IMG/VR virus record: IMGVR_UViG_2690316161_000023 | Location: 1 to 47,532 of that record | Direction: 5' to 3' (one strand) | Length of the DNA: 47,532 bases | From: a virus | Lineage: Duplodnaviria > Heunggongvirae > Uroviricota > Caudoviricetes | Shown: in pieces, positions 1 through 46,928 of the stretch | Layout of the letters: every line of letters starts with the position of its first letter | Numbering within the stretch: position 1 is the stretch's first letter | The notes under the pieces: generated by a model | What the model saw: the letters and a program-made list of their open reading frames with translations, nothing else | Databases searched by the model: none | Told to the model about the DNA's origin: nothing | Made by a program: the position numbers and the translations under genes

Positions 1-276
1 ATGGCGGGTTATTTGTCCTGGTTATTCCCCCGTTGTAAAATCTCTCCTAAACTTAACGGTACGGCACCACACTTCGGGGATGAAATGTTCGCGCTGGTAC
101 TTTTTGTTTGCTACCTGGATGGCGGTTGTGAAGATATTGTTGTGGATGTCTACAACACGGAACAGCAGTGTCTTTATTCTATGAGCGATCAACGGATCCG
201 CCATGGCGGTTGTTTTCCGATTGAGGATTTTATAGATGGTTTCTGGCGACCAGCACAGGAGTATGGTGATTTTTAA
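1..276 (+). CDS. Small host hypothetical protein immediately upstream of pphA (YebW-like position)
   Basis: 91-aa ORF outside the prophage, adjacent to pphA; identity from recalled synteny only. Confidence 0.4.
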   Translation: MAGYLSWLFPRCKISPKLNGTAPHFGDEMFALVLFVCYLDGGCEDIVVDVYNTEQQCLYSMSDQRIRHGGCFPIEDFIDGFWRPAQEYGDF

Positions 277-936
277 TTATTGCAATTGCACAAGAGTCAG
301 TTCGCCCCCAAAGACAGCACCGGTATCAATATAATGCAGGTTGCCAATATCCACGCGATGTCGCAACGGTGTATGACCAAACCAGAAATGATCAGCACCT
401 GTAATTCCCTGCCCTTTTTGGCGTTCACCTAATCGCGAGCGGCTCCACAAGACCTGATGCAAATCAACGTCCTTTTGCCATTCATAAACATCATCTGGAT
501 AATCGGCATGAGCAATAACATGTTTGCCGGTACGACTGTGTACTTCAAGAATAAAGGGCAAATGCTGACATTTTTCCAGCGCCGTTTTCGCTTGTTTCTG
601 TTGATTATCTGCCAGCGCAATAAACCAGTCGCCGCCATTCATCAACCACAAAGACATCTGCTGGGATGCCAGCGCATCCATCGCCATCTGTTCATGATTG
701 CCTCTTACCGCACGAACCCAATGTTGTTCCAGTAACTGCAGGCAACGTAAACTTTGCGGCCCACGATCGATAACGTCTCCCACTGAGATAAGTAAATCTC
801 GCCACGGATCAAAACCACAATGCCATAATTTGCGGCGCAACTGCTCAAGACAACCGTGTATATCGCCAGAAAGCCAGATATGTCGCCATTGATGACCCGC
901 AATTCTCTGATAAACGGGCGCAGGCTGTTTCATCAA
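277..936 (-). CDS. pphA: Serine/threonine protein phosphatase 1 (PP1/PP2A-family metallophosphatase)
   Basis: 219-aa ORF with the diagnostic motifs GDIHG, GDVIDRG and GNHE. Confidence 0.88.
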   Translation of the reverse strand: MMKQPAPVYQRIAGHQWRHIWLSGDIHGCLEQLRRKLWHCGFDPWRDLLISVGDVIDRGPQSLRCLQLLEQHWVRAVRGNHEQMAMDALASQQMSLWLMNGGDWFIALADNQQKQAKTALEKCQHLPFILEVHSRTGKHVIAHADYPDDVYEWQKDVDLHQVLWSRSRLGERQKGQGITGADHFWFGHTPLRHRVDIGNLHYIDTGAVFGGELTLVQLQ

Positions 937-1064
937 TATTTTCCTCCCGCGCTAAAGATCACATAATCTTAACAAGAATGTTAAAAAACGCTGGACTCAG
1001 ACAGTAGAGTGTGTGTTATGGTTGACTATAAAGTCAGCGAAGGAAATGCTTCTGGCTTTTAACA

Positions 1065-1098
1065 GATAAAAAGAGACCGAACACGATTCCTGTTTTCG
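1065..1098. repeat. attR: displaced host sdsR 3'-end remnant (core about 1075-1093)
   Basis: aaaaagagaccgaacacgattcctgttttcg matches 46929-46960 with 2-3 mismatches; ends in the cggtctcttttt form recalled for the host sdsR terminator. Confidence 0.6.
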
Positions 1099-1397
1099 TC
1101 AACAAACGACAAAATCCTTTAGAATTAATGTGTTAAATAAATTTATGCTCATCTTTTAATCCCTAACACATACCATTACATATTAATACATTCAATTAGT
1201 TACCATTTTTTTCGAGTTTTTTAGAGAAATTTTCGGGAATATTTCAGGTCAATCCATGCATACACAAGCAATTCCTGTATTGAATAATTCCGTAGCAATT
1301 ATGTAAAATCACCTTCGGCTGATTTTCATTCAAACTCGCGCTATCGAACGTCCATCAGCCAGCCGTGGCACGTTCTTGCATACGACGTGCTGCGGTT

Positions 1398-1987
1398 TCA
1401 TTTATCTCCGACCGGAAACTTCTTATACAAAGTCGATACGCCAACATCATAGATGATCTCCACATTCTGGCGATGAACTCCTGATGCAATTAGTCGCCCG
1501 GCCTGCGCCCATTGTTCTGATGAAAGTTCGGGACGGCGACCGCCAATTCGTCCCTGTGCGCGAGCAGCTTCCAGTCCAGCTTTTGTTCGTTCAACAATCA
1601 GTTCACGCTCCATTTCAGCCAGGGCACCCATGACATGAAAAAAGAAACGGCCATTGGGGTGCTGGTATCAATACTGTCAGTCAGGCTTCGGAAATTCACG
1701 CCACGCTGACGCAACTCTTCTATCAGCGTAACAAGATGCCGCATACTGCGCCCCAACCTGTCCAGCTTCCAGACAACCAGAGTGTCTCCTGCCGATAGTG
1801 TCCTGAGCAGTTTTTTAAGCCCCGGTCTGTCGGACTTAGTGCCACTGATTTTATCCTCAAAAACCCGCTCACATCCCGCGCAGTTCAGTGCATTACGTTG
1901 CAGATCGGTGTTCTGGTCATTTGTTGATACGCGTACATAGCCAATAAGCATGTTAAATCCCCTTGGTAAAAGCAGGAATGATGCCAT
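1398..1987 (-). pseudogene. pin: Pin/Gin/Hin-family serine DNA invertase, frameshifted
   Basis: Two overlapping ORFs (1598-1987 catalytic part MLIGYVRVSTNDQ...; 1398-1631 C-terminal HTH part MGALAEMERELI...) in different frames; the join reads PMAVSFFMSW where family members have PMGRFFFHVMG, consistent with loss of one G. Confidence 0.8.
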
Positions 1988-2520
1988 TTGCTTGTTATTT
2001 CTGCATTTTCATAAACGTTGGTTTGGGAGAAGGCTCTGCATTACCGGTTGGGGTGCCTGTTCCGTGGCCTTCAGCCACTCCGCCAACAGGCTGGCTGAAA
2101 TGCAACGGTGCCGCTTTTTCTGCTGAAGAATACCCGGAACTGGCAAAGGCTTATCCGGCAAATAAATTGCCTGATTTACGTGGTGAGTTTATTCGTGGCT
2201 GGGATGACGGGCGTGGTATTGATGCTGTACGTGCCTTGCTAAGTCTTCAGAATGGAGGAGTGGAATCACACACCCACCAAGGGCAGCTCTTCAGAGTTAG
2301 TGATTATCGTACAAAAGAAATACCAGCATCAGAAGTTATGGGAAGAGGATATATTGCAAGCCTGACGCCGGGTGCTGATAGCCCACTTGATTTTGATGAT
2401 TATCCTGTATCTTCTAATCCAAATGGATATTTTGTCGGGAATCAGAGAACAACAGCATATGGGATAAATGAAACCCGTCCACGGAATATTGCATTTAACT
2501 ATATCGTGAGGGCTGCATAA
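1963..2520 (+). CDS. Alternate tail-fibre C-terminal segment (Sv'-like), not fused to a fibre N-terminus in this copy
   Basis: Residues from [15 protein letters not shown] onward are identical to the C-terminus of the 285-aa fibre at 7502-8359; the upstream part of the ORF is not fibre sequence. Confidence 0.6.
   Translation: MVKAGMMPFACYFCIFINVGLGEGSALPVGVPVPWPSATPPTGWLKCNGAAFSAEEYPELAKAYPANKLPDLRGEFIRGWDDGRGIDAVRALLSLQNGGVESHTHQGQLFRVSDYRTKEIPASEVMGRGYIASLTPGADSPLDFDDYPVSSNPNGYFVGNQRTTAYGINETRPRNIAFNYIVRAA
2006..2031. other. hix/gix-like 26-bp crossover site (outer site of copy A, invertase side)
   Basis: ttttcataaacg-tt-ggtttgggagaa; the ggtttgggagaa half is shared with the site at 7992-8017. 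Confidence 0.5.
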
Positions 2521-3122
2521 TGGATAACGCTGTATTAAATAGCGAGTTTATTGCTACAAAGGCGGGGAATATTACCGTCTATAACTATGATGGCGAAACA
2601 CGGGAATATATTTCCACATCAACTGAATATCTTGCCGTTGGTATCGGTATCCCTGCATATTCCTGTTTAGATGCCCCTGGCACATACAAAGCTGGTTATG
2701 CAATCTGCCGATCTGTAGATTTTAACTCATGGGAATATGTGCCAGACCATCGCGGTGAAATCGTCTTTAGCACCGAAACAGGAGAATCAAAAGAAATCAC
2801 AGCTCCGGGTGATTACCCTGATAATACAACCACTATCGCCCCGTTAACGCCATACGATAAATGGGATGGTGAGAAATGGGTGACGGATACCGAAGCACAG
2901 CATAGCGCCGCAGTAGATGCAGCAGAAGCACAGCGCCAGTCACTGATTGATACTGCAATGGCTTCAATCAGTCTGATTCAGCTGAAATTGCAGGCCGGAC
3001 GTAAACTGACGCAGGCAGAAACAACCAGCCTTAACACTGTGCTGGATTACATTGACGCGGTGACGGCAACAGATACCAGCACCGCGCCGGATGTCATCTG
3101 GCCTGAACTGCCGGAGGCGTAG
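2520..3122 (+). CDS. Tail fibre assembly protein (cognate to the Sv' segment)
   Basis: 200-aa ORF directly after the fibre C-terminal segment; identical copy at 6900-7502. Confidence 0.7.
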   Translation: MDNAVLNSEFIATKAGNITVYNYDGETREYISTSTEYLAVGIGIPAYSCLDAPGTYKAGYAICRSVDFNSWEYVPDHRGEIVFSTETGESKEITAPGDYPDNTTTIAPLTPYDKWDGEKWVTDTEAQHSAAVDAAEAQRQSLIDTAMASISLIQLKLQAGRKLTQAETTSLNTVLDYIDAVTATDTSTAPDVIWPELPEA

Positions 3123-3534
3123 GCCATTCAATATCTGGCGCACTGGCGGTATCGACCAGCTCCAGTGCGCCCAGATAATCCAGCCACAAATTATATTGTG
3201 CCAGTTCCTCACCTTTCAGACGACCAATAGCTGCTTTACCAGGCCATTGCTTACCGTTCATGTAATCATTGGCTAAATCTATTCTTTTTTGCTTCTCCAC
3301 ATCAGCAGCGACAATTAATTCTTCTCGTGTAAGTGGAGGAATATCACCCCATGCTGGCATGTTATTTAAAGTTATAAGTTGCTTACCTGTAGGGGGAGTG
3401 CCGGAAAACTCATAATAAATGCTGTCACTAACGTTAATGGCATCATGTGGCCAACAATTATTATCAACATAATCAGCCTGCCACTCGATGGCATAAAAAC
3501 GGGACTCAGATGGACTGAACACAAAACGATTCAT
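3094..3534 (-). CDS. Tail fibre assembly protein (cognate to the Sv segment)
   Basis: 146-aa ORF directly after the fibre gene 3536-4201; identical copy at 6488-6928. Confidence 0.7.
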   Translation of the reverse strand: MNRFVFSPSESRFYAIEWQADYVDNNCWPHDAINVSDSIYYEFSGTPPTGKQLITLNNMPAWGDIPPLTREELIVAADVEKQKRIDLANDYMNGKQWPGKAAIGRLKGEELAQYNLWLDYLGALELVDTASAPDIEWPTPPAVQAR

Positions 3535-3535
3535 A

Positions 3536-4201
3536 TTAATATCCTATAGCTAAAAACATAGCGTCTGAGGTGTTTGTATTTACAGCAATATTCATCATGA
3601 CCTGAGCGGTAAATCCTGTATTGCTTACCCACTCGCATGAGTTAGTTATCTGAACCCATGTTAATTTGGTAGAAAAAACGCCCCAGCAATTAACAGGGAA
3701 CGGGACAGGGAAAGTCACTGGCACAGAATTTACTACACCGACAGTAGTCAAATTTGCGAGCGTCCGGCGAAACACCTGAATCTTAAGACCATCAGGACCT
3801 GTAAATAACAAATTATCGGTGTACTGCCCGCTTGCTCTTAAACCAAGGTTTTCGAGAGCCGTTTTCACTGTGCCGTCCGATTTGATATCGCCAAACGGAT
3901 TTTTGCGGCTCAGGTATTCAACAGCAAACCCCGATCCAAGCAATTCAACAAAACCGGGCAGATCACCATTATCAAGCACATCCCGTTGCGTTTTGTCACT
4001 TACAAACTGGGCCAGAGCTGCAGCAATAAAGCTGGCCTGTCGAATGGCTTTGTTCACCTGCGCACTGGATGCTTTCCCTGCTGTAAATCCGGATAAAAGC
4101 GCAGGCAACGCTTCCCATTCCTCCTGCGACATAACATTGGCATTTCGATCCGTTGCAAACGCTTTAAAGTCATTTTTCGCCATCAGAGTAATACTCCCCA
4201 T
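3536..4201 (-). CDS. Tail fibre protein, constant N-terminus fused to the Sv variable C-terminus (copy A)
   Basis: 221 aa; first ~120 aa identical to the 285-aa fibre at 7502-8359 and diverging after ...TALENLGL. Confidence 0.72.
   Translation of the reverse strand: MGSITLMAKNDFKAFATDRNANVMSQEEWEALPALLSGFTAGKASSAQVNKAIRQASFIAAALAQFVSDKTQRDVLDNGDLPGFVELLGSGFAVEYLSRKNPFGDIKSDGTVKTALENLGLRASGQYTDNLLFTGPDGLKIQVFRRTLANLTTVGVVNSVPVTFPVPFPVNCWGVFSTKLTWVQITNSCEWVSNTGFTAQVMMNIAVNTNTSDAMFLAIGY
3833..3858. other. hix/gix-like crossover site inside the tail fibre gene (copy A)
   Basis: tgctcttaaacc-aa-ggttttcgagag resembles the recalled Hin hixL site; lies exactly where constant and variable fibre sequence meet. 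Confidence 0.6.
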
Positions 4202-4863
4202 GCTCCTACATCAAAACCACTGATGAATTCGTTATCCATATCAAAACCAAAAAATTTTGAGCCTTCCGATGGGGTTTCCACCGAAGGTGTTTCAATGCCA
4301 CCCGCCCATACCCCGGCGGCTTTTACTGTGAGATACCCCTGTTTAATTGCCGCAATTAACTCACGCGATACATCTGAAATATCAGTATCAGGAAAGACCC
4401 AGACCGATATCGTCATGTCCTGGTTATCGACTATCTGCATTCGCAGCCCGGATCCTGCTGTTGCAGCGTCAAGAATTGCCGGAAGAGAATCATTCCGTCC
4501 ATCCCAGTTATTAATCGCAATCTTCGCTTTAAGAATGACACGATAAGTTTCATCGCTGAGGTACATGTATCCGGAATCAGGATCGTATGGTCCCTGCCAT
4601 ACCCCCTGATCATATCCAAGCCCGTCGGTATCCCAGCTGAAATAGACACCTGAGATAGGCTGGCTGACAACACGGCTACGTCCGATCCACAATCCCAGAA
4701 TGTCAAGTTGCACACCAACCGCAGAGTCAATATCAAATGCAGTAATCAGCCCTCTGGTGGCAGCCGCAACATCAATAAGCGGCCGGGTCATCAGATCAAC
4801 ATGCGCAAGAAATTTAGGTTTAGTGGCGTGGTAGTTCGTGATTAGTTCGGTGTATTTGCTCAT
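4183..4863 (-). CDS. Baseplate/tail protein (Mu gp48 / P2 gpI-like), copy A
   Basis: 226-aa ORF between the baseplate J-like gene and the tail fibre gene; identical copy at 8341-9021. Confidence 0.55.
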   Translation of the reverse strand: MSKYTELITNYHATKPKFLAHVDLMTRPLIDVAAATRGLITAFDIDSAVGVQLDILGLWIGRSRVVSQPISGVYFSWDTDGLGYDQGVWQGPYDPDSGYMYLSDETYRVILKAKIAINNWDGRNDSLPAILDAATAGSGLRMQIVDNQDMTISVWVFPDTDISDVSRELIAAIKQGYLTVKAAGVWAGGIETPSVETPSEGSKFFGFDMDNEFISGFDVGAWGVLL

Positions 4864-6059
4864 GACTCCACCGTTATAACGATATTTTCCGGGGTACAGG
4901 ACGCAGATTCGTTGTATCTGATATCAATGTTTGATGACGACAAAGCCCCCGGGGATTTCCCAATCGTCAGTTCCTGAATATCGTAATAGCGTGCATCCCC
5001 GCCACTCACCACGCCAAGATTCGCCGGTGAGTAAATGCGACTTAAAAGGACCGAATCACCAATCATCAGACTATTGATATAGTCGGAAATAGCCTGCTGG
5101 ATCTGCTGCCCTATCTGTGAGGTATAACCCGTAAAAACTTTTAATTTAATCCGGGCATAAACAGGCACATCACTGGAACGCGAGAATTTGATTACATGGG
5201 GATTGCCGTATTTATCCGGAACCGTAACGGATGTTGTACCGTGAGTGGCTGTCCCCTGGCCTTTATTCCCTCTGATAGCCTGAGCAATATCCGTCACATC
5301 ACCGCCATCCACAATTACAGCAACAGAGTGTGGCGGTAACCCGTTACCGTCCTCCGAACCAGTATCGTTTTCATAGAGTTTGTGGCGGGTTACACCGGTA
5401 ACATTAGAAACAGCACCATCCAGTGCTTCAAATGGGGTTATTGATGGCAACGCAACACTTTGCGACTGACGGATACGTAACTCCGCGTCAGTTTCTGCCG
5501 GAGTGCCCACAGTAGCCGCAGCAGGATTAGTTACCGAAACCCAGCCACGGGTTGGCGTATTAATTTCAGTGATAGTTCCAGCCAGCGCCGCCACTGCACC
5601 ACTGACGGAACATGTTGCGGTCGCCATCACTGTACCATCCACGCCGACCACTACTGAAGCAGGCAAACGCCATATCACATTATTACTGTCTTTCACGCTG
5701 CCATTAATGATGGTTGTTCCGGCAGTTCCTGCAAGAAGCAAATCAACCGTAGAGTTCGTCGCGCCTTTACGTGAAATACCATTTATTTTCACGTTACTGG
5801 TCAGTGCAGCCCCATAGCCGGTTGCCGGTGAAAAACAGTTGTAGACAGTTATCGCCATATTATTGGCATCATGAATCGCCAGCGCCATCAGAGCCACCAT
5901 CTGGCCGTCTTTGCTGTCCGGTTCGAGGTAGGCATCACTGCCATAAATCTGCTGAAAATAGCTAATCAGGGTGCTGAGTATCGTCTGATAATCAGGCGCA
6001 CTGATCCCCTCCGCGGTTACCTTTGCAGATAAACCGAGAGAATCAAGGTTCAGAGCCAT
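4860..6059 (-). CDS. Baseplate J-like protein, copy A
   Basis: 399-aa ORF in the baseplate wedge position; differs from copy B (9018-10217) by one residue (D here, N there). Confidence 0.65.
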   Translation of the reverse strand: MALNLDSLGLSAKVTAEGISAPDYQTILSTLISYFQQIYGSDAYLEPDSKDGQMVALMALAIHDANNMAITVYNCFSPATGYGAALTSNVKINGISRKGATNSTVDLLLAGTAGTTIINGSVKDSNNVIWRLPASVVVGVDGTVMATATCSVSGAVAALAGTITEINTPTRGWVSVTNPAAATVGTPAETDAELRIRQSQSVALPSITPFEALDGAVSNVTGVTRHKLYENDTGSEDGNGLPPHSVAVIVDGGDVTDIAQAIRGNKGQGTATHGTTSVTVPDKYGNPHVIKFSRSSDVPVYARIKLKVFTGYTSQIGQQIQQAISDYINSLMIGDSVLLSRIYSPANLGVVSGGDARYYDIQELTIGKSPGALSSSNIDIRYNESASCTPENIVITVES

Positions 6060-6174
6060 TACGCCTCCGATGTAACAGTCGTTATTCCATAAAGAGTGTC
6101 GATTTCAGCGGAAAACATGACACGTCGGGTCGTGGTATCCACTGTCGTATTGAAAGAGAGGATTGATTTAACGC
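6060..6174 (-). pseudogene. Duplicated 3'-terminal fragment of the gp46-like baseplate gene
   Basis: ~115 bp matching 10218-10332 (last ~37 codons of the 117-aa gene) with no 5' part. Confidence 0.7.
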
Positions 6175-6189
6175 ATTGGTTTAAGAGCA
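6164..6189. other. Duplication junction formed on a crossover-like site
   Basis: tgatttaacgca-tt-ggtttaagagca: gp46 3' sequence joined to the Sv-side half-site. Confidence 0.5.
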
Positions 6190-6210
6190 AGCGGGCAGTA
6201 CACCGATAAT

Positions 6211-6486
6211 TTGTTATTTACAGGTCCTGATGGTCTTAAGATTCAGGTGTTTCGCCGGACGCTCGCAAATTTGACTACTGTCGGTGTAGTAAATTCTGTG
6301 CCAGTGACTTTCCCTGTCCCGTTCCCTGTTAATTGCTGGGGCGTTTTTTCTACCAAATTAACATGGGTTCAGATAACTAACTCATGCGAGTGGGTAAGCA
6401 ATACAGGATTTACCGCTCAGGTCATGATGAATATTGCTGTAAATACAAACACCTCAGACGCTATGTTTTTAGCTATAGGATATTAA
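6211..6486 (+). CDS. Sv-type tail fibre C-terminal segment, inverted and unfused (copy B)
   Basis: 91 aa identical to the C-terminus of the fibre at 3536-4201 but on the opposite strand; homology begins at the site near 6178. Confidence 0.6.
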   Translation: MLFTGPDGLKIQVFRRTLANLTTVGVVNSVPVTFPVPFPVNCWGVFSTKLTWVQITNSCEWVSNTGFTAQVMMNIAVNTNTSDAMFLAIGY

Positions 6487-6487
6487 T

Positions 6488-6928
6488 ATGAATCGTTTTG
6501 TGTTCAGTCCATCTGAGTCCCGTTTTTATGCCATCGAGTGGCAGGCTGATTATGTTGATAATAATTGTTGGCCACATGATGCCATTAACGTTAGTGACAG
6601 CATTTATTATGAGTTTTCCGGCACTCCCCCTACAGGTAAGCAACTTATAACTTTAAATAACATGCCAGCATGGGGTGATATTCCTCCACTTACACGAGAA
6701 GAATTAATTGTCGCTGCTGATGTGGAGAAGCAAAAAAGAATAGATTTAGCCAATGATTACATGAACGGTAAGCAATGGCCTGGTAAAGCAGCTATTGGTC
6801 GTCTGAAAGGTGAGGAACTGGCACAATATAATTTGTGGCTGGATTATCTGGGCGCACTGGAGCTGGTCGATACCGCCAGTGCGCCAGATATTGAATGGCC
6901 TACGCCTCCGGCAGTTCAGGCCAGATGA
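6488..6928 (+). CDS. Tail fibre assembly protein, inverted copy (copy B)
   Basis: Identical to 3094-3534, opposite strand. Confidence 0.7.
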   Translation: MNRFVFSPSESRFYAIEWQADYVDNNCWPHDAINVSDSIYYEFSGTPPTGKQLITLNNMPAWGDIPPLTREELIVAADVEKQKRIDLANDYMNGKQWPGKAAIGRLKGEELAQYNLWLDYLGALELVDTASAPDIEWPTPPAVQAR

Positions 6929-7502
6929 CATCCGGCGCGGTGCTGGTATCTGTTGCCGTCACCGCGTCAATGTAATCCAGCACAGTGTTAAGGCTGGTTG
7001 TTTCTGCCTGCGTCAGTTTACGTCCGGCCTGCAATTTCAGCTGAATCAGACTGATTGAAGCCATTGCAGTATCAATCAGTGACTGGCGCTGTGCTTCTGC
7101 TGCATCTACTGCGGCGCTATGCTGTGCTTCGGTATCCGTCACCCATTTCTCACCATCCCATTTATCGTATGGCGTTAACGGGGCGATAGTGGTTGTATTA
7201 TCAGGGTAATCACCCGGAGCTGTGATTTCTTTTGATTCTCCTGTTTCGGTGCTAAAGACGATTTCACCGCGATGGTCTGGCACATATTCCCATGAGTTAA
7301 AATCTACAGATCGGCAGATTGCATAACCAGCTTTGTATGTGCCAGGGGCATCTAAACAGGAATATGCAGGGATACCGATACCAACGGCAAGATATTCAGT
7401 TGATGTGGAAATATATTCCCGTGTTTCGCCATCATAGTTATAGACGGTAATATTCCCCGCCTTTGTAGCAATAAACTCGCTATTTAATACAGCGTTATCC
7501 AT
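6900..7502 (-). CDS. Tail fibre assembly protein cognate to Sv' (copy B)
   Basis: Identical to 2520-3122, opposite strand. Confidence 0.7.
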   Translation of the reverse strand: MDNAVLNSEFIATKAGNITVYNYDGETREYISTSTEYLAVGIGIPAYSCLDAPGTYKAGYAICRSVDFNSWEYVPDHRGEIVFSTETGESKEITAPGDYPDNTTTIAPLTPYDKWDGEKWVTDTEAQHSAAVDAAEAQRQSLIDTAMASISLIQLKLQAGRKLTQAETTSLNTVLDYIDAVTATDTSTAPDVIWPELPEA

Positions 7503-8359
7503 TATGCAGCCCTCACGATATAGTTAAATGCAATATTCCGTGGACGGGTTTCATTTATCCCATATGCTGTTGTTCTCTGATTCCCGACAAAATATCCATT
7601 TGGATTAGAAGATACAGGATAATCATCAAAATCAAGTGGGCTATCAGCACCCGGCGTCAGGCTTGCAATATATCCTCTTCCCATAACTTCTGATGCTGGT
7701 ATTTCTTTTGTACGATAATCACTAACTCTGAAGAGCTGCCCTTGGTGGGTGTGTGATTCCACTCCTCCATTCTGAAGACTTAGCAAGGCACGTACAGCAT
7801 CAATACCACGCCCGTCATCCCAGCCACGAATAAACTCACCACGTAAATCAGGCAATTTATTTGCCGGATAAGCCTTTGCCAGTTCCGGGTATTCTTCAGC
7901 AGAAAAAGCGGCACCGTTGCATTTCAGCCAGCCTGTTGGCGGAGTGGCTGAAGGCCACGGAACAGGCACCCCAACCGGTAATGCAGAGCCTTCTCCCAAA
8001 CCAAGGTTTTCGAGAGCCGTTTTCACTGTGCCGTCCGATTTGATATCGCCAAACGGATTTTTGCGGCTCAGGTATTCAACAGCAAACCCCGATCCAAGCA
8101 ATTCAACAAAACCGGGCAGATCACCATTATCAAGCACATCCCGTTGCGTTTTGTCACTTACAAACTGGGCCAGAGCTGCAGCAATAAAGCTGGCCTGTCG
8201 AATGGCTTTGTTCACCTGCGCACTGGATGCTTTCCCTGCTGTAAATCCGGATAAAAGCGCAGGCAACGCTTCCCATTCCTCCTGCGACATAACATTGGCA
8301 TTTCGATCCGTTGCAAACGCTTTAAAGTCATTTTTCGCCATCAGAGTAATACTCCCCAT
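7502..8359 (-). CDS. Tail fibre protein, constant N-terminus fused to the Sv' variable C-terminus (copy B)
   Basis: 285 aa; same N-terminus as 3536-4201; C-terminus identical to the segment at 2020-2520. Confidence 0.72.
7992..8017. other. hix/gix-like crossover site inside the tail fibre gene (copy B)
   Basis: ttctcccaaacc-aa-ggttttcgagag. Confidence 0.6.
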
Positions 8360-9021
8360 GCTCCTACATCAAAACCACTGATGAATTCGTTATCCATATC
8401 AAAACCAAAAAATTTTGAGCCTTCCGATGGGGTTTCCACCGAAGGTGTTTCAATGCCACCCGCCCATACCCCGGCGGCTTTTACTGTGAGATACCCCTGT
8501 TTAATTGCCGCAATTAACTCACGCGATACATCTGAAATATCAGTATCAGGAAAGACCCAGACCGATATCGTCATGTCCTGGTTATCGACTATCTGCATTC
8601 GCAGCCCGGATCCTGCTGTTGCAGCGTCAAGAATTGCCGGAAGAGAATCATTCCGTCCATCCCAGTTATTAATCGCAATCTTCGCTTTAAGAATGACACG
8701 ATAAGTTTCATCGCTGAGGTACATGTATCCGGAATCAGGATCGTATGGTCCCTGCCATACCCCCTGATCATATCCAAGCCCGTCGGTATCCCAGCTGAAA
8801 TAGACACCTGAGATAGGCTGGCTGACAACACGGCTACGTCCGATCCACAATCCCAGAATGTCAAGTTGCACACCAACCGCAGAGTCAATATCAAATGCAG
8901 TAATCAGCCCTCTGGTGGCAGCCGCAACATCAATAAGCGGCCGGGTCATCAGATCAACATGCGCAAGAAATTTAGGTTTAGTGGCGTGGTAGTTCGTGAT
9001 TAGTTCGGTGTATTTGCTCAT
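8341..9021 (-). CDS. Baseplate/tail protein (Mu gp48 / P2 gpI-like), copy B
   Basis: Identical to 4183-4863. Confidence 0.55.
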
Positions 9022-10217
9022 GACTCCACCGTTATAACGATATTTTCCGGGGTACAGGACGCAGATTCGTTGTATCTGATATCAATGTTTGATGACGACA
9101 AAGCCCCCGGGGATTTCCCAATCGTCAGTTCCTGAATATCGTAATAGCGTGCATTCCCGCCACTCACCACGCCAAGATTCGCCGGTGAGTAAATGCGACT
9201 TAAAAGGACCGAATCACCAATCATCAGACTATTGATATAGTCGGAAATAGCCTGCTGGATCTGCTGCCCTATCTGTGAGGTATAACCCGTAAAAACTTTT
9301 AATTTAATCCGGGCATAAACAGGCACATCACTGGAACGCGAGAATTTGATTACATGGGGATTGCCGTATTTATCCGGAACCGTAACGGATGTTGTACCGT
9401 GAGTGGCTGTCCCCTGGCCTTTATTCCCTCTGATAGCCTGAGCAATATCCGTCACATCACCGCCATCCACAATTACAGCAACAGAGTGTGGCGGTAACCC
9501 GTTACCGTCCTCCGAACCAGTATCGTTTTCATAGAGTTTGTGGCGGGTTACACCGGTAACATTAGAAACAGCACCATCCAGTGCTTCAAATGGGGTTATT
9601 GATGGCAACGCAACACTTTGCGACTGACGGATACGTAACTCCGCGTCAGTTTCTGCCGGAGTGCCCACAGTAGCCGCAGCAGGATTAGTTACCGAAACCC
9701 AGCCACGGGTTGGCGTATTAATTTCAGTGATAGTTCCAGCCAGCGCCGCCACTGCACCACTGACGGAACATGTTGCGGTCGCCATCACTGTACCATCCAC
9801 GCCGACCACTACTGAAGCAGGCAAACGCCATATCACATTATTACTGTCTTTCACGCTGCCATTAATGATGGTTGTTCCGGCAGTTCCTGCAAGAAGCAAA
9901 TCAACCGTAGAGTTCGTCGCGCCTTTACGTGAAATACCATTTATTTTCACGTTACTGGTCAGTGCAGCCCCATAGCCGGTTGCCGGTGAAAAACAGTTGT
10001 AGACAGTTATCGCCATATTATTGGCATCATGAATCGCCAGCGCCATCAGAGCCACCATCTGGCCGTCTTTGCTGTCCGGTTCGAGGTAGGCATCACTGCC
10101 ATAAATCTGCTGAAAATAGCTAATCAGGGTGCTGAGTATCGTCTGATAATCAGGCGCACTGATCCCCTCCGCGGTTACCTTTGCAGATAAACCGAGAGAA
10201 TCAAGGTTCAGAGCCAT
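9018..10217 (-). CDS. Baseplate J-like protein, copy B
   Basis: 399 aa; one substitution relative to copy A. Confidence 0.65.
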   Translation of the reverse strand: MALNLDSLGLSAKVTAEGISAPDYQTILSTLISYFQQIYGSDAYLEPDSKDGQMVALMALAIHDANNMAITVYNCFSPATGYGAALTSNVKINGISRKGATNSTVDLLLAGTAGTTIINGSVKDSNNVIWRLPASVVVGVDGTVMATATCSVSGAVAALAGTITEINTPTRGWVSVTNPAAATVGTPAETDAELRIRQSQSVALPSITPFEALDGAVSNVTGVTRHKLYENDTGSEDGNGLPPHSVAVIVDGGDVTDIAQAIRGNKGQGTATHGTTSVTVPDKYGNPHVIKFSRSSDVPVYARIKLKVFTGYTSQIGQQIQQAISDYINSLMIGDSVLLSRIYSPANLGVVSGGNARYYDIQELTIGKSPGALSSSNIDIRYNESASCTPENIVITVES

Positions 10218-10570
10218 TACGCCTCCGATGTAACAGTCGTTATTCCATAAAGAGTGTCGATTTCAGCGGAAAACATGACACGTCGGGTCGTGGTATCCAC
10301 TGTCGTATTGAAAGAGAGGATTGATTTAACGCCCCGCGTTTCGAGGATGCGCTTACGGATCGCCAGGTTGTAGGTTTCCGGCTTCTGCTTTCCGAGCACG
10401 GACTGGATCCACGGAGTCCCTTCGGTGGTGTCGAGAAACCATTGCCCATACCACAATTCGAATCGCGTTTTTACCGCCTGCGCCACGGCCTCCGGTGAGT
10501 TAATCAGCCAGGTGTCATCACCGCTGCCAAAGGTGTAATCGCCATCGGCGTCTTCACGTCTGTATCGCAT
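10217..10570 (-). CDS. Baseplate protein (P2 gpW / Mu gp46-like)
   Basis: 117-aa ORF between the gpV-like and J-like genes. Confidence 0.55.
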   Translation of the reverse strand: MRYRREDADGDYTFGSGDDTWLINSPEAVAQAVKTRFELWYGQWFLDTTEGTPWIQSVLGKQKPETYNLAIRKRILETRGVKSILSFNTTVDTTTRRVMFSAEIDTLYGITTVTSEA

Positions 10571-11322
10571 CAGTTTACCCCATCGGTATTGCTTCCACCG
10601 CGCTGAACACCGCCATGAGTGTGCGTATCATCGATTGACTTGCCGTTAGCCTTAACGCTCCCCAAGAACTCAACAGCACCAGTGATTTTTGAAGCCACAC
10701 CAGAAACAACAGACCCCACCATGCCACCCATCCAGGTTAACAGGCCATGAATGGTTACTTTCTCAGAAAAATCAGCCAGAGGGGCAACCACATCAAGACC
10801 ACCCGGAGCGACAATTTTAATTTTCCTGGTGTCAGGATTAAGCTCAAAATAGGTGCTGCCGTCGTCACTACGCAACTGTGTGGCACTGGTATTAATACCG
10901 CTAATCTTCCTCGCCTGCGACTGGGGACCGACAATACAAAACGCATCCGATAAATCATGCATTCTGTCATCAACAGGCTCCTGTATCCCGCCGTTCTGCC
11001 ACCAGAAATCAATACAACGATCGGCAAAAACGACAAGACACTCATCCCTGGCTTTTACCGGAAAAGTCAACGTACAGCCTCCTCCGCGCGGGAATACCAC
11101 TGGCACATCCACCAGCAATGGGTAATTTTGGGTAATGCGGTTGCCGTCATTATCCTTTTCAACCGAACGTATAGCAGGCTGCACAACTGCCGTAACCGCA
11201 TCAGGATCGAATGACTGAATAATGCCAGGCAAGGCGACACGGATCTGGTTCTTTGTTGTTTCCCGTTCAGATTTGAATGTTTCGGCAAGGTCGCCGCAGC
11301 GGGTCTGGTCAGATACTGCCAT
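10570..11322 (-). CDS. Baseplate assembly/spike protein V-like
   Basis: 250 aa with a C-terminal THTHGGVQRGG motif resembling P2 gpV. Confidence 0.65.
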   Translation of the reverse strand: MAVSDQTRCGDLAETFKSERETTKNQIRVALPGIIQSFDPDAVTAVVQPAIRSVEKDNDGNRITQNYPLLVDVPVVFPRGGGCTLTFPVKARDECLVVFADRCIDFWWQNGGIQEPVDDRMHDLSDAFCIVGPQSQARKISGINTSATQLRSDDGSTYFELNPDTRKIKIVAPGGLDVVAPLADFSEKVTIHGLLTWMGGMVGSVVSGVASKITGAVEFLGSVKANGKSIDDTHTHGGVQRGGSNTDGVN

Positions 11323-11340
11323 TTAGTAGGCTCCAGAAAG

Positions 11341-11371
11341 CAAAAAACCCGCCATCCGGCGGGTTTTATGT
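11341..11371 (-). terminator. Rho-independent terminator after the lipoprotein gene
   Basis: Minus-strand hairpin aaaacccgcc-ggat-ggcgggtttt followed by a T-rich run. Confidence 0.6.
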
Positions 11372-11387
11372 GACTAATTTGATCTTT

Positions 11388-12113
11388 TCAGTTTATAAGC
11401 CCCATCTTACCGGCGCTTCGATAGTTAATTACATCGCCTGAAGAGCCGCAAGGCACAGCTACAGTCGACATTTTGACAAATCCTTTACCGCCCTGCTTTT
11501 GGCATAAAGTGGCATGCATTTTTGCTAAACGCGCAGCATGACCAAAATCAATTTTGGTTCCGTAAGTTGAATCTCGTAGAGCTGCTTTTTTGGCAATTCC
11601 AGTAATATTTTTGTCTTTAATTACAGATGCAAACAAACTCAAATCATTTCCAATTTGATTGAAGCAAGTACGATTAATATCAACATCGGCATACGCTGAA
11701 ATGCGTTTGCAATCTGAGATCTGAGAAAGCACAGATGTGTTAACCAGTTGCAAATTTAATTTGTAGTCACCGACATAGGTATAAACTTTGTTAGGGTCCG
11801 TGGTTCCCGGATAACGAGTTACGAATGGAATGCTGTTGTACGCATCTCGCAAAGATTCTGCACCCTTACTTTTAAGCTCGTTCCCAACACCAGCAACGAT
11901 AACCTCTGGATGTGAAACTTCAAATTGAGACTTTTCTTCGCGCTGTATTTGAAGCCTGCTTTTCTGGCTCTCCTCAACTTGCTTATCGTACGCTTGTTTT
12001 TCTTCATTTTTTTGGGATAGCCATTTTTCCTGCGCTTTAGCACCATTAGGATCCCAACTACATGAAGTTAAAAAAAGAGAAAATACGATTGTGGTTATCG
12101 CAAGCCTGCTCAC
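11388..12113 (-). CDS. Lipoprotein of unknown function (inserted gene within the baseplate operon)
   Basis: 241 aa; N-terminal signal peptide with lipobox LTSC; charged K/E/Q-rich segment; visibly AT-richer than neighbouring tail genes. Confidence 0.6.
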   Translation of the reverse strand: MSRLAITTIVFSLFLTSCSWDPNGAKAQEKWLSQKNEEKQAYDKQVEESQKSRLQIQREEKSQFEVSHPEVIVAGVGNELKSKGAESLRDAYNSIPFVTRYPGTTDPNKVYTYVGDYKLNLQLVNTSVLSQISDCKRISAYADVDINRTCFNQIGNDLSLFASVIKDKNITGIAKKAALRDSTYGTKIDFGHAARLAKMHATLCQKQGGKGFVKMSTVAVPCGSSGDVINYRSAGKMGLIN

Positions 12114-12115
12114 TA

Positions 12116-13180
12116 TTATGCACCTCGATTCATCGCTGACTGGCTAGGAATATCACTAGCACCTCGAGCAAAGCACATCATATCCATGTACCACGCCTGG
12201 CCCCTTGTGTCGCCAGTGTACATAATACCGCGCACAATATAAACGCCATCCGTTGCGATGCTGGCAGGCTGCGATGTGGTGCCGCTTAGCGTGATATTTC
12301 CATCCGTGTTCTGGTCGGTGATCTGACCACCAGCCATCGCAATATCGTTGTTCGACAAGGCGGTACGATACACGGAAGCCTGATCCAGCTGAATGAGTCC
12401 GTTAACCCGGATGTTCGGATTAATAAGCGCGCGGACGTTTACGCCGTTACCGATAGTCTGCTGCGGCATGCCAATAAGCCCGGTAGCGCTGTTGAGCACA
12501 ATCGCTTCATGAACATATTCGTTATTCGCCACCATCTGGCGCTGACCGTCCACGAATTGCCATGTTGCGCCACATTGCCCGGCTACGTTATCCATTAGAT
12601 GCCGCGTCATGCCAAAGAGTACCCGCCCCCGGGGGAATACAGTAGCAGGCATTTCAGGCGTCAGGCCTTCGGTCGCACCTTTGGCTTCGAAGTCTTTCAT
12701 CAGCGCACGGTTTACATCAGCGACCGTGTAACCGGCAGCCAGCGTCTGTGAGGTTATACTGGTGGCAAAAGCCAGATCAGTATCTGCTGCCTGAATCAGG
12801 ACGTAGGAATCAACCGGACTGTCTTTTCCTGTGACCGAGTAGCGAATTTCACCGCTGAAAATCAGTCCGTAGTTGCGGCCATCACTCTGACCCACGTCCG
12901 CCGCGTCAACTTCCCGCACGGTCCCGACGTCGCTTGCCGACACCTCCGGCGCGATACCGTCGTAACCGGCAATCAGACGCACTTTCGAAAACTCCTGCCC
13001 GGTGATTCGGTTCACAGTATCTGCCGAGAGGTTATAAATTTTGATAGTCCCTACCCGGGACGCGCTGCTGATGTTGAACCAGTCGATCGTAAAGGTGACT
13101 TTAAAATCACTTAGCTCAATTCCCTGACCGTTCCCGTCCACAAGCTGCAGCTCGAAATGTCTCATCCAGTTCTGTGACAT
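12116..13180 (-). CDS. Baseplate hub / tail structural protein (Mu gp44 or P2 gpD position)
   Basis: 354-aa ORF between the tape measure region and gpV-like gene; assignment by position. Confidence 0.45.
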   Translation of the reverse strand: MSQNWMRHFELQLVDGNGQGIELSDFKVTFTIDWFNISSASRVGTIKIYNLSADTVNRITGQEFSKVRLIAGYDGIAPEVSASDVGTVREVDAADVGQSDGRNYGLIFSGEIRYSVTGKDSPVDSYVLIQAADTDLAFATSITSQTLAAGYTVADVNRALMKDFEAKGATEGLTPEMPATVFPRGRVLFGMTRHLMDNVAGQCGATWQFVDGQRQMVANNEYVHEAIVLNSATGLIGMPQQTIGNGVNVRALINPNIRVNGLIQLDQASVYRTALSNNDIAMAGGQITDQNTDGNITLSGTTSQPASIATDGVYIVRGIMYTGDTRGQAWYMDMMCFARGASDIPSQSAMNRGA

Positions 13181-13182
13181 GC

Positions 13183-13485
13183 TTACTCCGTTGATACCAG
13201 TAAATGGCTGCGACAGCCCAGGTCAGTTTTTGTGGGGTAATCCTGTGTGTTGTCATCACAGACCACCACCAGCTTAAAACCAAGCCCCATACAGGCGTAC
13301 TGCGCCAGCAGGTCAGCACCAGTGACGAGAGGAATACCGGAGATTACCGGCTCCCCTCTGTCGTTCTGCAGGTCCATAATCCAGTACAGATCGCGCCATA
13401 TGATGCTAATCCGCCAGGTGACACCACCCAGGACGATGCTGAACTGCTGGTTGTCCGCTGTCAGCGGAATTTCCTGAATTGTCAT
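13183..13485 (-). CDS. Hypothetical tail protein
   Basis: 100-aa ORF in the tail operon. Confidence 0.35.
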   Translation of the reverse strand: MTIQEIPLTADNQQFSIVLGGVTWRISIIWRDLYWIMDLQNDRGEPVISGIPLVTGADLLAQYACMGLGFKLVVVCDDNTQDYPTKTDLGCRSHLLVSTE

Positions 13486-14072
13486 TAGCCGCCCCCCAGT
13501 AATGACGCCACGTTACCCGTGATGCTTTTCAGCAGTGAAGTATCTGGAGGTTTTGTGGTTTTGTTGCCGCTGTTCTGTACCGCCGACGTGCTGGCCCCTT
13601 CCTTCATGTTGGTTTTATCCGCGACGGTAATCTGCTGTGTCCGGGAGATAATGACCTCCCTCAGGGTGAGGACGGCGGACAGGACGTTTTCGCTTGTCTT
13701 GTCCGTCGTCACTTCCAGCGCCCGGATCAACATGTTGCTGTACAGCCGTTTACCGGTTACCACATCGAAGGGGATACGGCTTTCCTGCAGATCCAGTAGC
13801 TCCTGATACGTCTGCTGAGGACTCAGGCCGAGCAGGCTGGTAGCCGTCAGGTTACTGGCAAAATCCAGCAATGCGCCGCCACCGGCGAAACCAACCTCCA
13901 TCACCACTTCTGACGGTTTTTTATAGGCATGATCAGCGACAGCGGCCCCGACCTCTACCGGATGCTCGGTTATTTCAAGCATATCTGTATGCTTCTCTGA
14001 AATAACAACACTGGGAACAATCATTCCTATTTTTCTGCTCTGCTGATGAAAAAGTGTAGAGAGAATATCCAC
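13485..14072 (-). CDS. Hypothetical tail protein
   Basis: 195-aa ORF directly after the tape measure gene. Confidence 0.4.
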   Translation of the reverse strand: MDILSTLFHQQSRKIGMIVPSVVISEKHTDMLEITEHPVEVGAAVADHAYKKPSEVVMEVGFAGGGALLDFASNLTATSLLGLSPQQTYQELLDLQESRIPFDVVTGKRLYSNMLIRALEVTTDKTSENVLSAVLTLREVIISRTQQITVADKTNMKEGASTSAVQNSGNKTTKPPDTSLLKSITGNVASLLGGG

Positions 14073-16081
14073 TAACCCACCCTCACCTGATTACTTCGCA
14101 TGACCTGAGCATTTGCAGACTGTTGCCGACGTGCAACCTCATTACCGACAGCGTGCGGATCTCCGCCACCGTAAATGTGGTAGGTATTTTGCTGGTTAAC
14201 CTCTGTCACTTTGCCACTAATTCCCGCCACGGCAGCCTTATTAATCAGCTCCCGAGAATAGATATTTCTTCCATTCTCATGCTGGATAATGCTGCTCATC
14301 AATGCTGACATGGTTTGCGGATCGCTCATATTCAGGGCAGCCCGGGAATCCACTCCCAGTCGTTGCGATACAGCCCTGATATACGCAGTTGTGTTGTTAT
14401 TATCAGACGCAGGAGCCCAGGTAGAGATAATTTTCTCCACACTGTTTATTCCCCGTCCAGCGTACAGCATTAACTGACGAGCAAGAGCCCGTAATCCATC
14501 AAAGGCAGTTTCAAATCTGGCAAATCGCCCGCCCGGGCGTTCAAGAGAAGCCCCTGCCTGACCAGCAAAATTAAGGTTTCCCGGATTGTTATTCCGTTCT
14601 CCTCGTTTCGTAGCCTGTGCATGTTGTTCCGGCTCATCATCACCAAACCAGCCGCGTACCGTCCGGCCCACACTGCGGGGATCGAATCCCCAGTGCTCTT
14701 TAATCCAGTCGGCAGTACTGTTAGCGCTGTCTGTAACCATCGGCATCGCTGACGGATTTTCGCTGCCCTGATTAAGTATCTGTTTGCCGATGCTGACGGC
14801 ATCAGCCCAGCGGCCATCTTTGATAGCGTTGAGCAGGTCAGCGATCATGTTCAGCATTTTGCTGAATTCGCCCATCTGGTCGATGAAGTTGCTGAAATCC
14901 CACTTCAGGGACCATGATTTGGGGTCAATATTGAGCAGTTTCGCCAGCGCTTTCACCAGGTCGTTAACGGTCGTTTTAAGGTCACGAACCATCTTCAGCG
15001 CGGCATCGACCTCCGGTTTCCACTTGCCCCAGTCAATCAGGCTGTCGCCGCCTTCCTTCCAGGTCTGATAGTCCTCCCACAGGAGGGCAATACCCGCCGC
15101 CAGCGCGGTAATGAGGCCAATCGGCGACATCCAGAACGTACTGTTCAGAATGCGCAGCGCAATCGTCAGTGCGCCAAACAGCGAGATCAACTCCCGCGTT
15201 TGCTTATCCAGCGATTGCCACCAGGTGATAAGGCCTGATGTCCCCTCAATCAGTCTGAAGAACAGCCGCCCAATAATATCCCCGAGCGCCAGAATGCCTT
15301 TTATGGCTTTCGTCAGGGTCTGCTCGATACGAGGGAAGTTGTCCAGGATATGGCGGCGCAGGGTGTCCAGCGAACCCGCAAGCCCCCCCGCAAGATTAGA
15401 GCCGATTTTGTCACGGGCCATGCCTGCCATCGCGCCAAACTCACGCAGGGAGGTCATAAATTTGTTGGAGCTTCTGGCCGCCTCGTCAGCATTGAAGCCG
15501 ATAGCTTTCGCCATTGCGCTGTACTGCCCGGAGAAGCCACCCACACCCCGGCGCATCGCCATAAGGGTATTTTCGTCAATGCCCAGCATCTGCGCATACT
15601 GGTTAGCCCGGTAATACGGCATGCTGCTGAGTTTCTGTCCAACGCCCGTAAAAATAGCGGCCATGTCACGCATGTTACCGCTGGCATCACGGGTCTGTAC
15701 GCCCAGGCGATTCAGAAAGCCTTCTGCACCGGGATTGTTACGAATAAACCGGGAGAGGCTTTCCAGAGAAGATCGCGCAGCGTCCACGCTGCCGCCAACC
15801 TGCGAAACCGCATAGCCAATAGACTGAATTCCCTGGACTGTCGCGCCGGTGCGCTGTGACGCCCAGTAAAGATTATCCAGGCCGGAGGCGATCTTAGCCG
15901 TGAAGGCCACCACGGACAGCGCAGCTCCTTCAACAGCCAGCCCCATTTTGATGACATTTGCAGTTGTACCGGCGAGGACAGAACCGAACTTTTTCGCTCC
16001 TGCATCATCCACACTGAAGCCAAGCGAGACGAGGAAATCTTTAATAGTTTCAGCGTTCATTATCCTCTCTCCATTTCTCAA
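14072..16081 (-). CDS. Tail tape measure protein
   Basis: 669-aa ORF after the tube and chaperone genes; ORF call starts on TTG, a downstream ATG (MNAETIKD, about 16060) is the likelier start. Confidence 0.7.
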   Translation of the reverse strand: MRNGERIMNAETIKDFLVSLGFSVDDAGAKKFGSVLAGTTANVIKMGLAVEGAALSVVAFTAKIASGLDNLYWASQRTGATVQGIQSIGYAVSQVGGSVDAARSSLESLSRFIRNNPGAEGFLNRLGVQTRDASGNMRDMAAIFTGVGQKLSSMPYYRANQYAQMLGIDENTLMAMRRGVGGFSGQYSAMAKAIGFNADEAARSSNKFMTSLREFGAMAGMARDKIGSNLAGGLAGSLDTLRRHILDNFPRIEQTLTKAIKGILALGDIIGRLFFRLIEGTSGLITWWQSLDKQTRELISLFGALTIALRILNSTFWMSPIGLITALAAGIALLWEDYQTWKEGGDSLIDWGKWKPEVDAALKMVRDLKTTVNDLVKALAKLLNIDPKSWSLKWDFSNFIDQMGEFSKMLNMIADLLNAIKDGRWADAVSIGKQILNQGSENPSAMPMVTDSANSTADWIKEHWGFDPRSVGRTVRGWFGDDEPEQHAQATKRGERNNNPGNLNFAGQAGASLERPGGRFARFETAFDGLRALARQLMLYAGRGINSVEKIISTWAPASDNNNTTAYIRAVSQRLGVDSRAALNMSDPQTMSALMSSIIQHENGRNIYSRELINKAAVAGISGKVTEVNQQNTYHIYGGGDPHAVGNEVARRQQSANAQVMRSNQVRVG

Positions 16082-16289
16082 TGCGTCGCTGGTTATCCGC
16101 TTTTACCGCCAGATGGTCATTCAAGAGAGCAATGTCATACAAATCGACAGAGCCATCTTTAAGTGCTGTATAAGGAATTAACCCGGCGTCAACCGGATTG
16201 AGAAGGTAGGACAGCCCGTCCGGCAGGCTGTTAAACGTCAGCCCTGTTGCAGGCTCTGCGTCGTGCTGGTAAGGGGTGTAGGCAAAAAA
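16050..16289 (-). other. Predicted -1 frameshift extension of the tail assembly chaperone
   Basis: Slippery heptamer T_TTT_TTG about 16283-16289, nine codons before the chaperone stop; the -1 frame stays open ~79 codons and stops just after the tape measure ATG. Confidence 0.5.
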
Positions 16290-16690: not shown

Positions 16691-16693
16691 GTA

Positions 16694-17134: not shown

Positions 17135-17144
17135 TCACTTCCCC

Positions 17145-18290: not shown

Positions 18291-18293
18291 AGC

Positions 18294-20166: not shown

Positions 20167-20353
20167 TTTTTACCTCGTTACGCGCGTCTGTGGCTTTGCC
20201 AACGGATACCTCCGCGTGCGCACGAGTGAACCAGTGCGTGGCAACTTCTTCCTCCACAGCATGACGGCCTTTAACAAACTCGCGCCGTGAACCGTCGGGA
20301 AGCGTGAGCACAAACGGGGTATGTACGTGTATTACTGCATTATTTTTTGCCAT
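20132..20353 (-). CDS. Small hypothetical head protein
   Basis: 73-aa ORF directly after the major capsid gene. Confidence 0.3.
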
Positions 20354-46798: not shown

Positions 46799-46928
46799 TT
46801 TTAACGTAAATGGATTGTTAAATGTATTTTGGTTGTGATATAACCAAAAAAGACCGGAATACAGAAATTCGAGTAAATTTCGGGGAATTTCGGGAAGACG
46901 TTTGCAACTAATTGATTTTAAATACAAT

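Follow-up and report, generated by a model that had tools for sequence, protein, structure and literature searches.

Tandem duplication of an invertible tail-fibre segment and adjoining baseplate genes in an Escherichia coli prophage assembly, and its possible origin in off-target action of a serine invertase

The DNA considered here, the window (the whole stretch that was analysed, 47,532 nucleotides, IMG/VR record IMGVR_UViG_2690316161_000023), is part of the Escherichia coli draft contig CYBY01000012.1 (122 kb; assembly GCA_001285845.1, a 2015 draft). It carries a prophage in which an invertible tail-fibre segment, called G, and the neighbouring baseplate genes, called block A, are assembled twice in tandem. 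From left to right the layout is L (host pphA and an invertase gene), G in orientation (+), A, G in orientation (-), A, and B (the remaining late operon); the late strand is the minus strand. The duplicated block contains the following features.

2018-3846, no strand assigned: segment G copy 1, orientation (+), with both cassettes head-to-head
2028-3122, plus strand: Collar-type fibre C-terminus and Tfa200 in G copy 1, silent in this orientation
3094-3534, minus strand: Tfa146 in G copy 1, with a gp53-like fibre C-terminus, in the predicted expressed orientation
3536-4201, minus strand: tail fibre variant 1, 221 aa, constant 121 aa plus a Gp53-like_C end
3847-6174, minus strand: block A copy 1, comprising the fibre N-terminus, the DUF2612/Wedge1 gene, the Baseplate_J gene and a 3' remnant of the sheath-initiator gene
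4183-4863, minus strand: DUF2612/Phage_Wedge1 gene, copy 1 (Pfam)
4860-6059, minus strand: Baseplate_J gene, copy 1 (Pfam), with the D allele at 4997
6060-6174, minus strand: 3' remnant of the sheath-initiator gene, 115 bp, still containing the J Shine-Dalgarno sequence GGAGG
6176-8004, no strand assigned: segment G copy 2, orientation (-), with Tfa200 (6900-7502) and the Collar-type end now on the minus (late) strand
7502-8359, minus strand: tail fibre variant 2, 285 aa, constant 121 aa plus a Collar domain end; the same protein as in the single-copy genome L015 described below
8005-10332, minus strand: block A copy 2, with the N allele at 9155, running on into the rest of the late operon
10217-10570, minus strand: intact gp46-like gene of the Sheath_initiator family, 117 aa (Pfam)

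Segment G and block A together make up a tandem unit of 4,158 bp that is present twice. Positions 3840-6174 and 7998-10332 form a direct repeat (offset 4158; 2,335 nt) with a single mismatch, C at 4997 versus T at 9155; because the first 7 nt of this repeat (AAACCAA) are crossover-site sequence, the block proper is taken as 3847-6174 and 8005-10332. Positions 2018-3846 are the reverse complement of 6176-8004 (1,829 nt, 0 mismatches), and this inverted repeat reaches 2013/8009 if one mismatch (2017/8005) is allowed. Chance is far from sufficient to explain a 2.3-kb repeat with a single mismatch, and no further long repeats were found in the 47.5-kb window. The C at 4997 gives D in the J-like protein, where the T at 9155 gives N, and the D variant is unique to this contig among ~15 billion proteins; the one-base difference between the A copies means that the sample contained two distinct A sequences.

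A preliminary description of the block, made from the sequence, had reported near-identical direct repeats of ~2.33 kb, a ~1.83-kb segment in opposite orientations, the D versus N difference and the inclusion of the last ~115 bp of the gp46-like gene, and on all of these points it agrees with the repeat boundaries, sequence and translations given above. The genes also lie where that description placed them, but the names J, gp48 and gp46 that it used are Mu-style labels for what Pfam assigns to Baseplate_J, DUF2612/Phage_Wedge1 and Sheath_initiator. Its claim that both fibres (221 and 285 aa) are complete and sense-oriented with their own assembly genes is upheld by the open reading frames (ORFs) and their domains: the two fibre ORFs have their first 121 residues in common, and behind each lies a Caudo_TAP chaperone gene of its own (Tfa146 or Tfa200). 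The cassette of Collar-type end and Tfa200 is 89-94% identical to cassettes of P2-like phages (pro483, a phage that encodes an invertase itself) and to HK97 stf/tfa cassettes; such cassettes circulate among unrelated prophages in one host, which therefore offers many heterologous targets for invertases.

G is a classical invertible fibre segment of the Pin/Cin/Gin type. Its ends are 26-bp crossover sites of 12+2+12 structure, inverted relative to each other, with s2 inside the fibre gene. The sites of the block are listed below together with the novel joint between the two units, j, and the parental sequence from which one half of that joint derives, the quasi-site Q.

2006-2031, plus strand: crossover site s1, TTTTCATAAACG TT GGTTTGGGAGAA, core 2018-2019
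3833-3858, plus strand: crossover site s2, TGCTCTTAAACC AA GGTTTTCGAGAG, core 3845-3846, within the fibre gene
6164-6189, plus strand: novel joint j, TGATTTAACGCA TT GGTTTAAGAGCA
7991-8016, plus strand: crossover site s4, TTCTCCCAAACC AA GGTTTTCGAGAG, core 8003-8004, the expected s1/s2 recombinant
10322-10347, plus strand: parental quasi-site Q, TGATTTAACGCC CC GCGTTTCGAGGA, inside the sheath-initiator gene and at the right end of the duplicated unit

Two position weight matrices (PWMs) were used to score sites, one built from half-sites of this site family and the other, independent, from published sites of EC958 prophages (Forde et al., 2014; PMC4134206). By both matrices s1, s2 and s4 are the three best-scoring 26-mers of the window. 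Fourth behind these true sites, again by both PWMs, is the best unused look-alike at 19039-19064 (TGCCTGCATACG GC GGTTTTCCAGAG), which lies inside a tail-module gene, is kept in relatives and is a better quasi-site than Q.

The same prophage is found at the same place, as a single copy, in two 2024 assemblies with multi-megabase contigs, L007 (GCA_040813075.1) and L015 (GCA_040813095.1), which are 99.98-100% identical to the window over 15-20 kb. L007 is in the G(+) state and is identical to window positions 1-6174 except at 4997, and to 7998-20217 except at 17415 (G here, A in L007), the sole other difference over ~20 kb; against so close a relative of the window strain, the private single-nucleotide polymorphism (SNP) at 4997 in the duplicated copy stands out. 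L015 is in the G(-) state and is 100% identical to window positions 6176-15341 and 1-2024; its left junction, termed s1' (TTTTCATAAACG TT GGTTTAAGAGC; CATAAACGTTGGTTTAAGAGC), is as predicted, and the s4 junction is also present. With G(+) in one sister genome and G(-) in the other, both the s1' substrate and an active invertase exist in the lineage. More widely, ~25 complete E. coli genomes have a related prophage adjoining pphA, with the gene order pphA, pinE, two head-to-head fibre-end/chaperone cassettes, wedge gene, J, sheath initiator and spike. Comparison with related prophages thus yields both orientations of G but the duplication in none, every one being single-copy. No paper on the assembly accessions of the window and the two sister genomes was found in the literature.

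Joint j is the sole junction in the block that is not obtainable from a single-copy genome. Its left part is sheath-initiator sequence up to 10332, that is, the left half of Q with C replaced by A at 6175; in its right part, identity to G begins at the TT of 6176-6177, the core of s1'/s2, and continues through the inner half-site of G as in s1' of L015. The joint keeps the 12+2+12 length, but the base at 6175 (A) stands outside both repeats and is like neither parent (C in Q, G in s1'). The TT core of j sets the register in which Q is read, so that no choice of register is involved in scoring it. In this register Q ranks 156th of 47,507 positions with the PWM from this family's half-sites and 20th of 43,324 unique positions with the EC958 PWM, where three of the higher ranks are true sites; it has 12 of 20 matches to the consensus TTCTCNNAAACC taken twice, a level that 0.1% of positions reach. 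The three scorings place Q in the top 0.05-0.3% of the window (p ~0.0005-0.003), neighbouring registers score far lower, and the motif TTTCGAG occurs in Q and, equally far from the core, in the outer half of s2/s4. As read from the sequence, the anatomy of j fits site-specific exchange in which a weak secondary site was the partner of a true crossover site.

Two simpler sources of the block were rejected. A mixture of G orientations alone gives only s1, s1', s2 and s4, by graph reasoning with which the junctions of L007 and L015 agree, and never j; the suggestion in the preliminary description that the block might be an artefact of a population mixed for segment orientation therefore does not hold in that form, which cannot make 6164-6189, and an artefact of another kind is considered below. 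A second related prophage elsewhere as the source was discarded as well, as the five junctions account for all G/A boundaries and there is no foreign flank.

The explanation that we favour, with a probability of about 0.6, is a genuine tandem duplication of the 4,158-bp unit made by an invertase. A serine invertase of the Pin/Cin/Gin family would have acted off-target, pairing s1' (the invertase-proximal site of G in the (-) state) with the weak site Q on another copy of the chromosome, either a sister chromatid or the partner in a dimer. Q would contribute its left half and s1' its right half to the hybrid joint j, with exchange at the 2-bp core in an unequal crossover, and the duplication would follow; one exchange would be enough to give L-G-A-j-G-A-B, and the predicted product of s1' x Q is TGATTTAACGC[C/A]TTGGTTTAAGAGCA. 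The opposite orientations of the two G copies would mean that the partners already differed, or that one copy later underwent an ordinary flip. What speaks for such an exchange is that one side of the joint lies exactly at the central TT of a bona fide 26-bp site and that the other side is site-like in a fixed register.

Several observations weigh against an invertase-made duplication. The joint is carried by one assembly only, a 2015 draft. Searched for as a 24-mer or as 401 bp across, it is spanned by 0 of 5,426 complete E. coli genomes, and INPHARED phages, IMG/VR, GTDB representatives and JGI metagenomes hold no other match; nor is the 43-aa ORF across the joint on record in a gene-position index that includes Logan assemblies. 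No complete E. coli genome spans the reciprocal deletion joint (s1-outer plus Q-right, as a synthetic query), and the reciprocal inversion joint j' (s2-outer plus Q-right; CTCTCGAAAACC nn GCGTTTCGAGGA, CTCTCGAAAACCnnGCGTTTCGAGGA) is absent from the window and from the complete E. coli genomes, so that there is no sign in those genomes of recurrent use of Q. The A at 6175 fits neither parent, a strictly conservative exchange predicting C; it could be a consensus error, a mutation acquired afterwards or one connected with the mismatch of the cores. Between Q (CC) and s1' (TT) the cores differ, and a mismatch of this kind is normally a block to serine-recombinase exchange; Q is only a weak site, and the better look-alike at 19039 was left unused. 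Wild-type invertases, moreover, strongly prefer intramolecular inversion (invertasome model; PMC3798978). Given the core mismatch and this preference the event should be very rare, an expectation that agrees with j being unique. In a young, unstable duplication one would not expect the copies to differ by a SNP, and the resident pin gene is frameshifted.

The most serious of the other explanations, which we nevertheless consider unlikely, is an assembly artefact of a kind other than simple orientation mixture: the genome would be single-copy, a contig or path of the alternative orientation would have been threaded into the main contig, and 6175 would be a contig-end or gap-fill base. Spurious alternative-allele contigs arise at invertible fibre segments, and their integration produces artefactual duplications (Forde et al., 2014; PMC4134206), a documented hazard that counts against the invertase explanation as well; an alternative-allele contig would, however, bring the invertase-side (L) flank with it, and j has none, 6174 running straight into the G core. 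Both single-copy states are present in the lineage, as L007 and L015, but mixed orientation yields no read or read pair linking 10332 to a G end. One orphan base sits exactly at the joint, as an artefact might leave it, but beyond AACG there is no k-mer in common at the joint that could mislead an assembler. Nothing in the way assemblers work favours a break in the sheath-initiator gene at one of the ~20-150 most site-like positions of 43 kb; under an artefact, a breakpoint that is site-like at p ~0.0005-0.003 in a fixed register would be matched only by chance. The single base by which the copies differ also speaks against an artefact; that graph assemblers usually collapse single-base differences such as 4997/9155 is, on the other hand, a reason for caution.

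The confinement of j to one 2015 draft again suits an artefact, as does a contig of a related draft genome, L009 (GCA_001265995.1, JHSN01000032.1), in which a G segment is joined to a different prophage, an indication that drafts thread such repeats arbitrarily. In that contig, at ~12200-17400, the far side of G runs into a P2-like H fibre gene with P2 I, J, W and V behind it, and the fusion point at ~14098 is a canonical crossover site, TTCCCCCAAACC AA GGTATGCGAGAA; either the two prophages underwent an invertase-mediated inversion with each other, or the contig is a repeat-induced chimera.

The orphan base and the mismatched cores can also be read as signs of imprecise repair. A real duplication by illegitimate recombination, whether by RecA-independent template switching or by end-joining after an abortive double-strand cut by the invertase, would accommodate the A at 6175 and the CC versus TT cores better than a conservative exchange does, and an abortive cut would account for one end lying exactly at a core. 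Random end-joining, however, predicts neither the preserved 26-bp register nor a site-like partner (p <= 0.003). Usable microhomology is lacking too: only AACG is in common, displaced by 2 nt and so out of register, and microhomology-mediated duplication was rejected as the main explanation. We regard illegitimate recombination as improbable.

A further alternative, which we hold to be very improbable, accepts the joint as real but derives it from an s2 x Q inversion of block A in part of the culture, the assembler having resolved the branched graph as a tandem repeat, or supposes that the true structure is another isomer. Inversion is the reaction favoured by invertases, and the reverse complement of j is the exact product of an s2 x Q inversion; the reciprocal product j' is missing, as noted above. 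Quasi-site events are also so rare that, in a culture grown from a colony, only a clonal one would be frequent enough to enter the assembly; a clonal event, however, would leave no intact Q, s2 or s4, and the contig has all three. As to other isomers, reasoning and simulation give three short-read paths that use the same five junctions, namely the assembled form, L-G+-A(inverted)-G+-A-B and L-G+-A(inverted)-G(-)-A-B; an s1 x s4 inversion, between two natural sites, turns the assembled form into the third. If the reads were short, the joint itself is thus more certain than the particular isomer.

The gene for the resident invertase lies immediately to the left of G.

1398-1951, minus strand: pin-type serine invertase gene, split into ORFs 1598-1987 and 1398-1631 by a 1-bp deletion at ~1652/1653

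Its Resolvase and HTH_7 domains are both present, spread over two frames (Pfam; alignment to the intact pinE of FDAARGOS_1059), and it is 90-92% identical to PinE. The frameshift allele is identical in L007 and L015, and so is found in all three genomes of the lineage; it is therefore real and inherited. L007 and L015 differ in G orientation despite the frameshifted pin, and an invertase acting in trans is therefore implied. Such action has precedents: PinQ rearranges the P fibre segment of e14, a case of the Pin-family invertase of one prophage acting on another (PMC12529663), and in prophage Phi4 of EC958, inversion occurs although its own invertase is truncated, from which a trans-acting invertase was inferred (PMC4134206). 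A more speculative alternative is that a -1 slip at the heptamer T_TTT_TTC, which is in-frame and 10 nt past the deletion, might restore a 184-aa protein (GRF changed to AVS). A strict Fis-motif search of 1700-2010, the pin 5' region, in which a Fis-bound recombinational enhancer was sought, gave no match, a result that says little given how degenerate the motif is.

The locus resembles the G/Gin system of Mu, the C/Cin system of P1 and the P/Pin system of e14 in having an adjacent Resolvase+HTH_7 invertase gene, inverted 26-bp sites of which one is inside the fibre gene, two head-to-head cassettes that each consist of a fibre C-terminus and its cognate chaperone, and both orientations in near-identical genomes. 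It differs from them in that the segment and 2.3 kb of baseplate genes are present twice, that there are four sites instead of two, one of them a hybrid with a non-site half, that the invertase gene is frameshifted, and that it is carried by a SEN34-like myovirus whose early region is lambdoid. The closest parallel to the proposed exchange comes from Cin, which, as Iida and Hiestand-Nauer reportedly found in 1986 and 1987, uses quasi sites, with exchange at the central dinucleotide, itself said to matter in site selection. A local sequence change reportedly results if the dinucleotides differ; those events are said to have been selected in the laboratory and to have been mostly plasmid inversions, deletions and fusions. 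Joint j likewise carries the core of the true site (TT) and not the CC of Q, but here a tandem duplication would have arisen naturally in a chromosome, and the base that changed is the one next to the core rather than in it.

Fibre regions with more than two crossover sites are known from the Min system of plasmid p15B, which has six sites and several different C-terminal cassettes, and from shufflons, which use a tyrosine recombinase; the present block is like both in that several isomers are possible. Unlike Min, it has two kinds of cassette, each duplicated, it includes whole baseplate genes, and one of its half-sites is poor. The EC958 prophages Phi1, Phi2 and Phi4 carry invertible fibre segments of 2-3 kb with very similar 26-bp sites, and inversion takes place in one prophage although its own invertase is truncated; in EC958 the segments are single-copy and the duplicated forms were spurious contigs, whereas here the duplication lies within one contig and has a distinct recombinant joint (PMC4134206). 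The rearrangement of e14 by PinQ supports action in trans where the resident pin is frameshifted, but it is a simple inversion with a phage-defence phenotype, and no duplication is involved (Kirigo et al., 2025; PMC12529663).

The prophage that carries the block is ~45.9 kb long, or 41.7 kb minus the extra unit, and is inserted at the ryeA/sdsR (SraC/SdsR) small RNA (sRNA) locus, with pphA on one side and yebY on the other.

277-936, minus strand: pphA, host serine/threonine phosphatase, the left host flank (Metallophos domain, and pphA annotation in relatives)

At the right prophage end (46926-47070) the sRNA pair ryeA/sdsR is intact, and an 11-mer, ACGATTCCTGT, found at 1083 and again at 46945, near both prophage ends, is a candidate att core. 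The prophage is that of a SEN34-like temperate myovirus, lambdoid in its early region, and encodes an integrase, RecE/RecT, a cI-like repressor and a Q-like antiterminator; the structural half is 97% identical to the induced E. coli myophages vB_EcoM-689R2 and -606R2 and 82% identical to Salmonella phage SEN34. Regulatory RNAs encoded by the prophage at Rfam gathering score, at window positions 30013-30213, 32418-32567, 40395-40446 and 45186-45364, are a C4 antisense RNA with a1/b1 targets, isrK, sok (hok/sok-type), DicF and RalA (the RalR antitoxin).

If the block exists as assembled, it has four sites, s1, s2, j and s4, whose cores alternate TT, AA, TT, AA. When inversion between sites of opposite orientation is simulated, 8 isomers result: in two, the late strand carries one fibre of each type, in two it carries the same fibre twice, and in the remaining four block A copy 1 points away from the late operon. 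G copy 1, with two natural sites, should still be able to switch, and G copy 2, bounded by the poor hybrid j, would probably be sluggish in inversion. The preliminary description had proposed that the block could fix two host-range variants at once; the presence of both variants is plausible, but fixation overstates the case, given that the lineage still inverts and that only 2/8 isomers have both fibres on the late strand. In the assembled order the late operon runs sheath initiator, J, wedge, fibre-285 and Tfa200, then J', wedge', fibre-221 and Tfa146. The Shine-Dalgarno sequence of J copy 1 survives in the 115-bp remnant, no terminator-like site was found on the late strand between the copies, and the prophage has a Q-type antiterminator; on these grounds co-expression of both fibres is plausible, with copy 1 presumably transcribed together with copy 2. 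To judge from its gene order, one lysogen could plausibly make both fibre types, and both might then be built into particles.

The arrangement can also be lost again. Homologous recombination between the A copies, or an s2 x s4 deletion, can return it to the form of L007, and an s1 x j deletion to that of L015. The extra 4.2 kb, ~10% of the genome, may lie beyond what the capsid tolerates, and the duplicated prophage may for this reason be unstable on induction.

Invertible fibre segments are textbook two-state switches of host range, and the duplication is a one-off structural variant of this well-known type of system, seen once. The chances are about even that it is a natural example of a 'variation generator', in the sense of a real duplication made by a Pin-family invertase at a secondary site in a baseplate gene. 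It has practical value in any event as a case for telling real rearrangements from assembly artefacts at invertible phage regions, and the anatomy of the joint, with its position at a crossover core and its site-like partner in the same register, is informative even without reads. The origin of multi-site systems and of double fibre sets is known chiefly from quasi-site experiments in the laboratory and from comparative inference. If the duplication is real, a two-state fibre switch would have become a four-site, eight-isomer system with both fibre types on the late strand of one prophage, a plausible intermediate toward multi-site inversion systems and two-fibre phages; it would be a concrete and testable one, for which the single-copy sisters in both orientations would serve as controls.

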